Positions 44,076-60,611 of a stretch of DNA of 64,000 bases are shown here, piece after piece. A model generated the notes under the pieces. That model was not told the DNA's origin. It did not search any database and saw only the letters and a program-made list of their open reading frames with translations. Source of the stretch: Negaprion brevirostris (Eukaryota); the NCBI GenBank assembly GCA_030324005.1, contig JARDVH010000149.1, positions 21,486,036 through 21,550,035 on the forward strand, read 5' to 3'. Both the position numbers and the translations under genes were made by a program. Position 1 is the stretch's first letter; each line of letters opens with the position of its first letter.

Positions 44076-44164
44076 GCACGTCCTCCAAGGCCACCAGTTA
44101 AGAAACCAAGGGGTAATGCGTTGCCAGTTGAGGCTCGGATATCCTCCATTTCAAGCCCAGAGCA
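44076..44164 (+). CDS. DENND1A: DENND1A coding exon (ARPPRPPVKKPRGNALPVEARISSISSPE+CA)
   Basis: cacag|GCACGT...GAGCA|gtaagt; 89 nt, phase 0-2. Similar to recalled human VRPPRPHVVKRPKSNIAVEGRRTSVPSPE. Confidence 0.92.
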
Positions 44165-47159
44165 GTAAGTATTGGCTGCCAACTTTCACAGTTAAAGGTT
44201 AATATAAAAAACTGAACATTTATAACAGTTCTTACAGTTCACACTTAAAACTTTCTATTTAATAACCCGTTTAAACCTGGCATTCTCAATTTGCAGATAA
44301 TTAAAAGTAAGCTGAGCATACTGGCCCTGAATTTAGCATATTGAATGCTTTTATTCTTGACTAAACTGCATTGTCAGATAACATGGTAGATGTGACAAGT
44401 GTTTTACTGTGCAACTTCAGTTAATATTTCTCATGTTATACTATAGAAAGAGTTGTGAGACATGTCATGTACTTCAAAATACACCTAACATGTTCATCTT
44501 AGTTAAACAGAAGTATTTTTTAAAGCCTAAAAACGTCAAAATGTTTACATATTTTGTACCAATCTTTTAACATTAATTTTCATACATTGCCTACTCCCAT
44601 ATCTCCAATGATGTTTTTCAGATTGTCTTACTGTCAGTCTTGGCGTAACAGTGTTAGCTCGGTAATGTGTGTCTGAGGTGTCCACTCACCTATGTTAGGA
44701 AAACATATCTCTGCTTTTGAGCTTGTTTTGGTTTCACTAAACATGGTAACAGATTGTTGAAATAGAAAATTGACTATTGTGATCACAATCATTCTATTTT
44801 CCACTGGTGGTGATACCAGGGTGAATAAAGCAAACTGACAATTTGTTCAGCTTTATTCTGCATTGTTATCAATAATTAATTAAAATAACAGAAGAGGTGC
44901 TGTCATGTGGGGATGCAAAAAGATCGACGTGTGCCAGACTGGGTTGTGGTCAGGAAAGAACAGCAAGCAGAATTACAAGCATGAAGTGATCTACATTGTG
45001 GTCAACAAGTTAATCTTTCAGAATTTGGTGCAGTTCAAATAATTTGGGTCTTTCTGTTTTTAAAATGATGAGAAGTTTGAACACAGAATGAAATATTGCA
45101 CCTTTCCATGTATCCCACTATTGTTCCTGTCTGCTATCACGTGAAAGGCAAGTGTATGCACTTTTAAGTGAAACAGTAGCAACAAATGTAAATGTCACAA
45201 GGAAAAGATGCTCAAATATTTATACCTAGTGACCGATGGTGTAATGGAGGGCATTCAGTTTCTTTTGACTTACCCTTGTTTTTTTTATTTTATCTGCGCC
45301 CAAATGTTGCTGTGGTGATGACAGCAAAATTGTTTGCGTTGGCCATCATTACGCCACTGAAACTAATCTCAGCTTCTGGAGATCGCACATTAACAGAATA
45401 GTACAGAAATTTAGAAATTGCTGCCAGTGATTCCAAGTTTCTTCAGAGAGCACCCACACCTTCTGTTCGCCCCCAGACCACAAACATGCCAATAAATGGA
45501 ATTGCTGAGAACTTCCACTCAGACATACTTAGTCTCCTGTAAAACCCCTTAACAATGTTGCACCTTATCGAATGAAGTGTTAACTGAGTTTTTAATGGCA
45601 CTCTAACCTCACAATTATCATGAAACACCCTGGCCATAAGAAGCTAATTTTATATTATTGGAATGTCAAATTTCTATATAATAAAAAACCCACATTTTTT
45701 TTAAAAAATCTTTATTTAACCTGCTATCTTAATCCAATTATAATTCATTTCACTATTGAAAAACTAAAGCGATAGTGTAGGATTAGAAGCACATTACTGT
45801 TTGTGAATACCCCAGTTTGATTAGCTGCCTATCTGCTCAGTGCTGCTGCTGGTCAAACAGCATGAATTAGCACCAGATTTAAACTTCCATTGGGAAAGGG
45901 AAAAACCATGCTTCGAGCCTTGCTTTACTGTTGACAACAAAATCCAGGCCAATGTTTGCTGAATCATTCTCCATGTTGGGAATCCAGTATCACCAACAAG
46001 TACTTACAGATGTAGAATAAAGTTTTCTTCTTATTAACAATTTGGGAGGTAGTGGGTTGGTGGCAGGGTAATGGGGGAGAGAGTTGGACTTACTTTTTAT
46101 TTATAAGATGTTTATGATTGCATAGGCAAGGCCTTTTCTCCATTTGTTTTCAGCCCAAACTGGCATCCACCATTACAATGCCAATAAAGATTTTTCAACA
46201 CACTGCCATTCTTCAAGCTTTTTTGAATAAAGTTGCAAGTTTGGTGTCAAATTGTGAATCATTCAATCCTTTAGGCTGCATTTATTAGAAACTGTGATGT
46301 GACTGTTCAAGCCTACTTTATGTATGACCCTTATAGCCTATTAATCTGGTCTGAATTCAAACCCAAGTTTCAGAAGTCAATACGCCATGTCCTGAACCAA
46401 TGTAGCATTCAGTTTTTCTCTAAACTCTTTCTTCAATGCACTTTTTAAACTTTCACATATTATAAGCCCATAGTCACTTACTCACATCTTTATGCAGTTG
46501 AGAATTGATTCCTGTCCACCTTCATCTTTCACAAACCAACTAAATCGAGAATTCTTGGGCCGTAGTTCTTTCAATCATCGCTTTATCATTCACAAGAATT
46601 GTGGTTCCTTGTGCCATTGAGTCAGATTTGGAATCTTCTTTACTTCACCCAATTTGAGAAACGTCCAATGTTGCAGCCTCCTTTCCTGTGACTTGAAGGT
46701 TAGTGTTCCCCATGCTCCCTGATTCATTATTGAAGGTCAGTCTGTTAGGACTAGTATCCTACTGTTTGGAATTACCTTTCAAAGTTGTTTTGCCTTGTTA
46801 CTCTCTCTGCCCCTGACTTCAAGCCACCCCTTCCTCCTACTTTAACTGTGTTTGTTAACTTCCCTCTACTTTCTGCACTGCCCTTTCTCTCCTTGCCACT
46901 TGCCACCCGCCGCCACACACACACAGCCCCCCGCCCCCCCCAAAAAATCAGATANNNNNNNNNNATCTGACTTCTGCTCAGTGCCCACATATCTGCTTTG
47001 TTAAATGTTCAGGGAAATTTATTAGCATTTCATCTGCATATTGCAGCCAATTCTATTCACCACCTGGGGAATATTTGAAGGATTCAGGGTTTGTGGTATA
47101 GAAAATTACTGTAATGGTCCTGAAGAATAGTGGTTTTAGTTATTAACAGAGATTAAAAA

Positions 47160-56436: not shown

Positions 56437-57364
56437 TGGGATCATGGCCAGTTTGACGTGTTGAATGCTGTGATTTGTGGTGAGAAAGCCATGTGATTTG
56501 GAATTGCAGAAATAAGTTCTTTCACAAACTCAGCAGTTTTTTTTCATTATCAACATTGTTGAATTTTTGTGTAAAGTGTTCCAGCATGTGAAATGTATTC
56601 ATTTAGTGCAACACTTGGCAAAATTCCATTTTATTTTCCCTTTCCTGTCAGTGTTCATGATGTCTATATGGGAACACTTTACTTCCTTTAGGCATGTTAC
56701 AAATAATCAGGCAAGATGTTTACCATCTCATGTTTCAACAGGGTGAAGCCTTTTACTCCTTTTCCATGATTTGGTAACTGTGCTTGTGAAGTGATAGTAG
56801 AAACCTAAAATTAGAAGTGTAAGTAATTATATCTGTTGTTTGCAGGGTTTCCTGTTTATTTCATGTTCTTGTACCAGCAATTATGTTTTTTATTGGTTAT
56901 TCCCAAATGAAAAAGAAGTAAAAATCATTTGCGTTATCTTATCCCAGTCATAGACCCAGTGAATTCTGATCAGTGTCCGGGATATGACAGATCAAATCCT
57001 CAAATTCTGAGATTGCATGAAGCATCGGGGTTTGCAAACCTCCGAATTTGTGTGTATTGTCATTAACAACCTCTAGAAATGCACTTGATAAGCACAACAG
57101 TGAATATGTAATGTTGGAGATGTACATGTATTTTTTAAAAATCTGAATTGTGACCAAAGCCTGCGCCAGCTACATGGGTTGCTGTTATCAGAGAGTTCAC
57201 AATGATGTAAAGTACCAAGATGTAAAGCTGATTAAGTTTGACAGTTCACCATATTTTTAGGCTGGGAAGTTCTGAATAGCTTTCAACCTTTGTTTCTAAC
57301 CTTGGCATATCACATTCTATTTCATGGTCTTCTGGACTGCATGATTTTATTTGGCTCATTGTGC

Positions 57365-57715: not shown

Positions 57716-58856
57716 ATATTTTTCAAATAATTTCTTGAGCTTATTCAGTATTCAAATTCAGCATCTTGGTTCTTGAATATTTTCGCAACTACTGACAATG
57801 GACTGCTGAATTTGCGATTTTGCTAAATCTCCATTGATTATGGCCATGTGAAAATGTATGTCCGTCCTTTTGAATAGTACAGAAATAACATGTTAAAAGC
57901 TATAGAGAAAAGTAAGCAGTCACTTTACATTATTGTCCTCGCAGTTTCTGCTGCATTTGGTGTTTAAACTCAGCATCCGGTGATATATGTGATGGATTCG
58001 CCATAGTCTTCTTCCAGCTGCTTTGTGAGACTCTTGGTGCCAGTTGATTTATACTGAGGCTTATGGCTTTGTCGTTCCTCATCTAGGTATATTGGCATGG
58101 GGGGGTGGGGGGGCGTCGGTGAGGAATTATCTACAATACATAAGTGTAACTGTTTATGAAATGCCATCAGTATTTACTGTATAGATTGTGTAATATATCT
58201 TGCACTTGGGATTGGCAAAAAAGTTGACCCTGTAAAAATTGGTAATTTTGATATTCAGAAATAACCTTGTTAATTCTTGATTACTGCCGGGAGGATGCCG
58301 TTCTGCAAGCCTTGTCTGCTCTGGATCTGGGGTGGGAGAGACAGTAAAATTCCAGCCTAAGTGTTTGCCAGTGCCCTTAAAAACATATTTCAGGCACAGT
58401 ATAAATATTTGTTTAATGTAACCAGAAAATGAGCAATTGTTTAATAACGAATGAACTCTACCTTGCCCTAGAAAATGTGTATTTAAAAAAATAAGAAATG
58501 TCTTTCTCTTGACATGTGCTAACTATGAATATGAGAATTAGTGAACTATTCATGTAAAAGGGAGCACTCAGAAGTGCCCTTCCTCATCTATTTGATGATT
58601 TAGTGTAGAGGTTTGAATAATTGAAGAATTGAACCTGCCCAATCATAAAACACATTCTGCCACATTCCCACCATGGAAAACTTGGAGTAGCACTGACATG
58701 CAATCCTTGAGATCCTTTAAACTATCTCATTTATGTAACCCTCCCCTCCCCCCACTTTCCAATATTTCATTCCGTTAATGTGTCTTGGTTTCAGATTGAA
58801 ATGTTCCTTTATCCACCCTGAAATCTTTTGTGGATTCGCCATAAGATGCTTCACAA

Positions 58857-59075
58857 ATGCTTCTTGGCCTTTTGGCTGAGATCAAGTGTCAGATCAAGCT
58901 CAAGATGGTGTGTAATGCCTTATCCTGTCAGATTGGATCTTGTTTGCCTCTCTTGAGGGGACCATGAATTGGATTCAATTGGACCTTGAATTTGGATTTT
59001 GGAGCAAGCAAGAAATGGATTCAAGTTTGCCTGGCCTTTCCTAAAGTTGGTTTTGTAACTTTAAGAACAGAGTAA
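58857..59075 (+). pseudogene. U2 snRNA-derived element (near full-length, with insertion after the branch-point recognition region)
   Basis: 58859-58889 matches U2 nt 4-34 at 29/31. Downstream are a stem IIb-like GCCTCTCTTGAGGGGAC, an Sm-site-like GGATTTTGG (58994-59002) and a stem III-like GGAGCAAGC...GTTTGCC, in U2 order. Confidence 0.8.
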
Positions 59076-59114
59076 AACATTTTTTTTACAGATGTAGTAA
59101 TAAAAGGCAAAAGG

Positions 59115-59350
59115 TAATAAATACTTCAGATCTGGAAATCTGACATAAAAATGGAAAATGTTGGAAAAACTCTGCCAATCTGGCAGCATCTGTTTAGAAA
59201 AACAAGAGCTAACGTTTCAAGTCCAATTTCCATTCTTGCAAACTCGAGAGTTCCAATTTAAAGTCATATTGGACTTGAAATATTAACTTTGTTTCTCTTC
59301 ATAGATGCCACCATATCTCTTGTGTTTTTCCAACACTTTCTGTATTTATT
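59115..59350. repeat. Second foldback (Penelope-like) element
   Basis: TGTTGGAAAA...GCATCT...AACGTTTCAAGTCCAAT pairs with ATTGGACTTGAAATATT...AGATGC...TTTTCCAACA. Confidence 0.65.
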
Positions 59351-60296: not shown

Positions 60297-60422
60297 CATC
60301 GTAAGGCCCACACGACACTACACAGTCTTCCTTTCTGAGGATTCCTCTGATGATGAACTTCACCATGAAGAGGACTCTATATCTGCCTTCTCTGAAAGCT
60401 TTCTCTTCACTCCTTTTGAATG
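60297..60422 (+). CDS. DENND1A: DENND1A acidic cassette exon (IVRPTRHYTVFLSEDSSDDELHHEEDSISAFSESFLFTPFEW)
   Basis: Strong pyrimidine tract + ctccag|CATC...GAATG|gtctac; 126 nt, phase 2-2. The HYxVFLSEDSSDDE motif is recalled from long DENND1A isoforms. Confidence 0.9.
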
Positions 60423-60611
60423 GTCTACTGACTCTTTCATTTATATTCTTTTGATTGAGAAACTTGTGTGTGACTGCTCATGAGTAAATGTGATTTCTAC
60501 AGCATATACCTATTTAAATACATGGCTGTATCGAATTGAGGAAAAAAATAGCAGACCACATAGATCAAGTGTCTGTAACAAACTATTGCATTCTCTTTCC
60601 TTGGTAGGTTT

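Follow-up and report, generated by a model that had tools for sequence, protein, structure and literature searches.

The stretch of DNA analysed here (the window, 64,000 nucleotides) contains part of DENND1A, and within an intron of this gene, on the sense strand and ~1.2 kb before the downstream exon, we observe a decayed SINE copy derived from U2 snRNA. The best protein matches for DENND1A come from sharks (Mustelus 91-92%, Cetorhinus 89%), with bony fish and tetrapods far lower. The copy belongs to the main subfamily of a group of elements that we term family A, and its parts and surroundings are as follows.

44112..44165, + strand: DENND1A exon upstream of the host intron (tblastn of P0011)
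58850..58859, + strand: possible 5′ target-site duplication, weak (8/10 match, score not above control)
58856..59087, + strand: whole SINE copy, family A main subfamily, 13.0% from the family consensus outside CpG sites
58856..58889, + strand: head, U2 nt 1-34 with stem I (Rfam alignment; 29/31 to the genome's U2 nt 4-34)
58878..58948, + strand: predicted new long hairpin in place of U2 stem IIa (segment z = -3.7)
58890..58901, + strand: additional 12-nt unit that repeats U2 nt 23-34 in diverged form, common to the family
58902..58917, + strand: third 12-nt unit and mutated branch-point recognition homolog (58910-58917), register from the older subfamily
58946..58962, + strand: U2 stem IIb homolog (6/6 pairs in the consensus)
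58966..59002, + strand: second insertion and Sm-site region (consensus predicted to form a G-U-rich hairpin of 13 bp)
59011..59042, + strand: U2 stem III homolog (13/13 pairs in the consensus, two two-sided changes)
59044..59073, + strand: probable U2 stem IV homolog with shortened loop (10/11 pairs, hand-set register; sequence alone not significant)
59074..59087, + strand: A-rich tail with T-run, family-typical
59085..59094, + strand: possible 3′ target-site duplication, weak
60298..60423, + strand: DENND1A exon downstream of the host intron (tblastn of P0011)

The Infernal check against Rfam that had been proposed for this locus gave a match to the whole U2 model at 58856-59086 (E = 2.9e-05), with a score of 38.7 bits that lies below the gathering score of 46; at the gathering score the window gives no match. 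The identity of 29/31 to U2 nt 4-34 reported in the initial annotation holds against the genome's own U2. The decayed target-site duplication (TSD) suggested for the flanks fared less well, as the score of this copy's pair (8/10) is 5.5 where controls average 4.7, and TSDs are real only at the level of the family. Taken by itself, the window copy is probably inert. Directly 3′ of it lies a different high-copy repeat with inverted arms (59108-59310), probably a MITE-like element; a similar hairpin at locus L181 gave sub-threshold miRNA matches in Rfam. Elsewhere in the window, positions 13578-13635 on the minus strand hold the last 60 nt of a 5′-truncated copy of a second family (B, 85%) ending a LINE-like ORF stretch, and a weak Rfam snoR53Y match at 57195-57278 (E = 0.73) is probably due to chance.

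Family A is dispersed through the genome. The window copy as query returned 2,986 candidates, and all 40 that were scored, the window copy itself apart, have 80-88% identity with most of the length matched; a second copy, the nearest to the consensus, returned 4,022 candidates with a best match of 90-92%, these counts being rough and overlapping between families A, B and C. The genome contains 246 exact matches to a 21-nt motif across the insert, compared with none to the reversed control, which at 8-13% divergence implies ~1,400-4,600 copies. The fetched loci reduced to 75 non-redundant copies, from which one wrong match and five short or gapped copies were dropped, and both inserts are common to the 69 that were aligned. 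Outside CpGs, divergence from the consensus averages 10.6% for 24 copies picked by pattern and 7.8% for 45 picked by BLAST, and the nearest copy is 4.5% away. Among the 69 aligned copies we saw no young member of the main subfamily and none with all four CpGs intact, and a hunt for masters returned 20 CpG-retaining matches, all of them diverged, with no master copy identified.

The copies are ~222 nt long and have the form of retroposons. Their 5′ ends are spread from nt 1 to ~20, with many at or near U2 nt 1, and beyond their fixed 3′ end comes an A-rich tail that frequently includes a T-run. A TSD score of at least 8 occurs in 13 of 63 main copies versus 1.89 expected from mismatched flank pairs (p = 7e-8; best 10-18 nt), and the enrichment is weak in an older subfamily (2/30 versus 0.59 expected). 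We found no shared transposon target of the Mariner-N4 kind, since 97 copies gave 9 flank-pair matches and most flanks are unrelated. At 13 of 121 family A loci a second snRNA-derived piece lies within 1.5 kb, in some cases because an insertion has divided a single copy. Families C, B and A were also observed stacked head to tail, with up to three or four elements in succession (L185 ~700-1800, L082, L126, L088, L151).

DNA runs of other organisms contain the family in abundance as well, on 2,089 contigs in organism G and 2,988 in organism H. Organism G carries the same DENND1A-intron insertion with flanks at ~98%, and the insertion is also present in organism F; no empty site was seen in F or G, and H has no upstream cover. 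One DNA run (X16), near letter-identical to the window, was excluded as support. Four runs of uncertain kind, guessed to be RNA, hold 86, 126, 140 and 37 contigs of diverged family copies, of which 23-69% continue into unrelated sequence; they show no discrete master and are uninformative on expression. We are confident that family A is an abundant and dispersed, SINEU-like short retroposon derived from U2. The snRNA-derived SINE family foreseen in the initial annotation is supported by thousands of dispersed copies with both inserts, by TSDs and A-rich tails, and by a succession of subfamilies.

The main consensus is a full-length U2 plus two hairpins born of duplication. It is collinear with the genome's U2 (L031) over the full length, apart from insertions of 24 nt and ~18 nt. 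The first insert, initially put at ~27 nt, is real and consists of U2 nt 23-34 repeated as two additional 12-nt units, in a register that is visible in the older subfamily. The branch-point recognition homolog therefore lies 3′ of the insert and is mutated there; the altered branch-point sequence had been misplaced at GTGTCAGATC. The second insertion, ~18 nt before the Sm site, had been overlooked, a single insert having been described. Of the U2 parts read as collinear, stem IIb, the Sm region and stem III are present, and stem IIa is replaced by the predicted new hairpin, whose core pairs number 19/19 in the main consensus and 17/19 in the older one and are decayed in the window copy. The Sm region read as GGATTTTGG (58994-59002) is likewise present, but its A is a minority state, with T in 54 of the 69 copies and A in 6. 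The 3′ end, which had been taken for non-U2 sequence, is probably U2-derived: none of 1000 shuffles aligns to U2 111-191 as well as stems III and IV do together, and stem IV can form 10 of its 11 pairs. The stem IV sequence by itself is not significant (313/1000 shuffles as good), and the stem is identified by its position and pairing.

The older subfamily, represented by 30 copies that are 9.3% from their own consensus, resembles U2 more closely than the main subfamily does. A tree rooted on 3 U2 genes, with 20 of the 69 main and 15 of the 30 old copies and a bootstrap not fully settled, shows the main copies as a clade (100/99) nested within the old ones. The succession is from U2 to the old subfamily to the main one, and the shared inserts together with this nesting agree with the earlier suggestion of descent from a master already unlike U2. 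Two candidate subfamily positions do not co-segregate among main copies (p = 0.30). Another type of U2, ~84% to L031, forms a tandem array with a 492-bp period in the genome (L036-L038, G000:C157:37354999-37356174; L226; L244) and may be the real gene array or a variant U2. Three further U2-like genes (L032, L033, L034) are ~81% identical to L031, two on tiny contigs and one beside a gap; L032 and L034 have an extra base before the branch-point sequence, and all three possibly come from another organism.

An RNA fold has survived this remodelling. Of the 36 U2 base pairs, 33 still form in the family A consensus; 16 of 19 changed pairs still pair, three by two-sided change, compared with 273 of 696 in decaying copies (p = 8e-5), and with stem IV left out 8 of 10 changed pairs are kept (p = 0.011), in a test that uses hand-set stem registers and one present-day U2 as a stand-in for the ancestor, and whose counts come from consensuses of one lineage rather than independent events across species. 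The fold z-score of the CpG-restored consensus (-4.2) is close to that of U2 (-4.1) and far from that of the window copy (-0.5), and both inserts lie in new predicted hairpins. RNA editing during retroposition was considered as a cause of the G-U bias and rejected, because the copies show no sense-strand A>G/C>T excess. We infer that the masters were under selection to keep their RNA fold. The splicing motifs, in contrast, are lost: the branch-point sequence is mutated, stem IIa is replaced and loop IV is cut down.

Two sister families combine pieces of other snRNAs. Family B (974 candidates; 25 copies, 7.9% from consensus; ~390 nt) consists, in order, of U1 nt 5-95 (containing a deletion as well as a foldback), U4 nt 23-47, a U2-derived double hairpin and a tail of its own. 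None of 1000 shuffles aligns as well as its U1 head to the genome's own U1 gene, and the U4 piece agrees with the genome's own U4 at 23/25 nt (0/1000 shuffles). The heads of family B are interchangeable, being U1, U2 1-35 or U1 plus U2. Family C (2,668 candidates; 29 top copies, 4.7%; ~305 nt) begins with U2 1-40 (39/40), followed by a foldback; a doubled U2 head also occurs, and TSDs are found in 3 of 24 copies versus 0.35 expected. The middle of family C aligns with family B, although a U4 origin is not significant there (199/1000 shuffles). The branch-point hexamer has a predicted pairing of 0.92 in family C versus 0.20 in U2, and the U1 5′ end one of 0.88 in family B versus 0.44 in U1. In family A the branch-point homolog is mutated and in a loop, with a predicted pairing of 0.23, so masking by pairing does not apply to this family.

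Some of these elements sit inside U2 itself. A pattern search for an A-run ahead of U2 nt 44-63 returned 11 matches, which fall at 6 places: a SINE lies at three of them (A-main L236, A-old L242, C L238), a LINE at two and a gap at one. U2 resumes at nt 39 in four of the six and at ~41-43 in two. A second U2-site pattern returned L236 again and no further family A case, so that the family A copies found at the U2 site number two. At three of the six places the U2 half behind the insertion is 3′-truncated, and those targets may therefore be pseudogenes. Nucleotide 39 of U2 is the insertion site given for Keno and Utopia in passages of PMC4640811. The presence of SINE families inside U2 at one fixed position suggests a U2-targeting retrotransposon as their mover; Keno, previously named as background only, became central through these insertions at U2 nt ~39. 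At L244 (G000:C54127), neighbouring units of a U2 array are struck at the same site, one of them by a LINE, and the next unit has an apparent bare A-run between U2 nt ~37 and 39.

Candidate partner LINEs are present in the genome. The zf-RVT domain gave 133 matches among 150 scored, and one intact ORF (L220) combines an APE endonuclease, an RT and a zf-RVT. Open or near-open ORF2 frames of 1,273-1,403 aa were observed at L220 249-4067, G000:C132 ~68660000 and G000:C133 ~34640700, with only L220 recovered as a single ORF in the fetched stretches, and some L1-group LINEs in this genome may be young. One 3′ end with poly(A) is common to 15 of 30 LINE loci; these shared-tail LINEs may or may not be of one family with L220. 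The 10-mer at this 3′ end recurs in 15 of 25 family B tails, and the family A tail is only similar. An snRNA-derived SINE occurs at 4 of 29 LINE loci versus 0.39 expected (p = 7e-4), a count made without L226, which was itself chosen for its U2 match. The shared-tail LINE is presumably of the Tx1/Keno clade. A search for its clade through homologs gave 8 matches, none of them named, and a genome search for L1 ORF1 (PF02994) gave no match with its control silent too, and so was uninformative. From the U2 site together with the domains we infer a Keno element, and a Keno-like partner, that is, a U2-targeting LINE of the L1 group, appears likely. The idea that family A is a non-autonomous Keno derivative was rejected, since it lacks LINE-derived 5′ and 3′ parts and has only a short tail motif in common; its consensus matches the 36 LINE loci compared only where a SINE copy or U2 adjoins the LINE.

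How such elements are transcribed without an internal promoter is described as an open question for snRNA-headed SINEs in passages of PMC4494074. The family A consensus has internal T4, T4 and T5 runs that argue against Pol III, an argument from oligo-T that the same passages make for SINEU. At L226, a family C head follows U2 1-38 within a U2 tandem array with a spacer matching the intact array at L036. A dispersed family C copy (L279) carries 43 nt of the array upstream flank (0/1000 shuffles, also without pattern-forced bases). Both loci fit masters that lie inside U2 genes and use the U2 promoter. A further array-flank match at L275 is apparently only its own TSD and was not counted. For family A itself, neither of two U2-gene upstream flanks was found at any of 103 copies, in a test that covered ~120 of thousands of copies in a genome with poorly assembled U2 arrays. 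Its head stops at U2 nt 34 and not 38, and the promoter evidence comes from sister family C; we lean only slightly toward U2-promoter borrowing by family A.

We interpret the window copy, with a probability of roughly 0.75, as a decayed copy of a U2-derived shark retroposon that would have been moved by a Keno-like LINE and produced by masters residing in U2 genes behind the U2 promoter. In this model, an element inserted at the Keno site would come to lie downstream of U2 nt 1-38 and of the U2 promoter, and would gain both transcription and a fresh U2 head. Masters inside U2 genes would be transcribed from the gene's promoter and would be selected for their RNA fold while their splicing motifs were lost. 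The ORF2 protein of the LINE would then reverse-transcribe the polyadenylated SINE RNA, mostly at relaxed targets. A wider version, to which we give even odds, places all three families in an independent shark superfamily of spliceosomal-RNA SINEs (U2, U2-U4-U2 and U1-U4-U2). These would acquire a promoter by Keno-site homing into U2 genes and be made as snRNA-type Pol II RNAs, their splicing-recognition ends mutated or locked in foldbacks to spare the spliceosome, and some masters may still be expressed in the form of structured, snRNP-like RNAs.

The known systems closest to these families are the crocodilian SINEUs, with which families A, B and C share a U1/U2 head, a length below 500 bp with structural changes common to the family, an A-tail with TSDs, and recurrent 5′ snRNA additions. 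SINEU-3, as described in parts of PMC4494074, is nearly all U2 with a shared structural change, poly(A), internal oligo-T and no known promoter, and a Tx1-type partner is inferred there from shared targets, in parallel with family A. It differs in having an internal ~50-bp deletion, a non-U2 3′ 40 bp and a Mariner-N4 target (same parts of PMC4494074), whereas family A carries two insertions that arose by duplication, retains stems IIb-IV through compensation, and is mostly dispersed and sometimes located at U2 nt 38/39. SINEU-1 and -2 resemble family B in their recurrent 5′ U1/U2 pieces, tandem copies and U1+U2 chimeras; family B adds the U4 piece and foldback hairpins, and the term "U4 snRNA" is absent from PMC4494074. 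Judging by the described structures rather than by sequences, family A probably arose independently of SINEU-1/2/3, and shared descent is unlikely. PMC4494074 reports that SINEU was not found outside crocodilians, and our full-text literature search, conducted outside Repbase, Dfam and subscription journals, returned descriptions from crocodilians only and none from cartilaginous fishes. Keno (Tx1 clade) and Utopia share the insertion before U2 nt 39 (passages of PMC4640811), but they are autonomous and protein-coding, whereas family A is non-coding, made of snRNA and has at most a short tail motif in common with the LINE. Processed pseudogenes of U2, whether polyadenylated or without a tail, are similar in their U2 5′ end, TSDs and A-tail (parts of PMC4494074), yet these are copies of true genes with private mutations, whereas family A copies descend from remodelled masters.

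Among the alternatives, we regard as possible but unlikely a SINEU-like history in which an L1-group LINE mobilised RNAs transcribed from arbitrary Pol II promoters or host introns, with snRNA heads acquired by template switching only and the U2-site insertions as side events. Transcription from flanks with template-switched heads is what Kojima proposed for SINEU (parts of PMC4494074), and the interchangeable heads of family B, the frequent head-to-tail tandems and the lack of any family A copy found behind a U2 promoter would all accord with it. It accounts poorly for family C, whose head ends at the Keno site, which occurs within a U2 array, and one copy of which carries the array flank.

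If the lineage had a genuine variant U2 snRNA gene of its own, with a separate promoter and a role in the cell, processed pseudogenes of it would explain the full-length U2 architecture with compensatory changes and the many copies beginning at or near U2 nt 1; such a gene could be hidden in snRNA arrays that are badly assembled, with U2 units beside N gaps or on tiny contigs. We nevertheless consider this reading, which the initial annotation had offered as an option, improbable. No copy lies closer than 4.5% to the consensus, CpGs are nowhere retained in full (0/69), the 20 CpG-retaining matches are all diverged, and the 0/103 result stands for the U2-gene upstream flank. None of the branch-point sequence, stem IIa and loop IV is intact, subfamily succession and chimeric U1/U4 sisters are SINE-like behaviour, and copies are present at the target site of the LINE.

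A Pol III SINE with internal A and B boxes gained from the duplicated U2 segment is very improbable. The tail has a T-run, and the extra 12-nt unit contains a 9-mer that we take to match the B-box consensus, which would favour it; the internal T4, T4 and T5 runs upstream should, however, terminate such a transcript, the candidate boxes are only ~20 nt apart, and a degenerate 9-nt match arises by chance about once per 20 such sequences. Finally, a single old U2 pseudogene with private damage, the case set against a SINE family from the outset, can be dismissed even though the window copy folds no better than shuffles (z = -0.5) and falls under the Rfam cut-off, because the element is multi-copy, with thousands of candidates, and both inserts are shared by the 69 aligned copies.

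The preferred reading, a U2-derived shark retroposon with masters in U2 genes, extends the SINEU-like class beyond crocodilians and brings in U4 as a further source. The promoter problem of snRNA-headed SINEs would receive a concrete and testable answer in the form of insertion at the Keno site of U2 genes. The families also document how a whole snRNA turned step by step into a parasite, its fold kept and its splicing motifs lost, and their thousands of old insertions, at least one of them common to another species, could serve as presence/absence markers in shark phylogeny.
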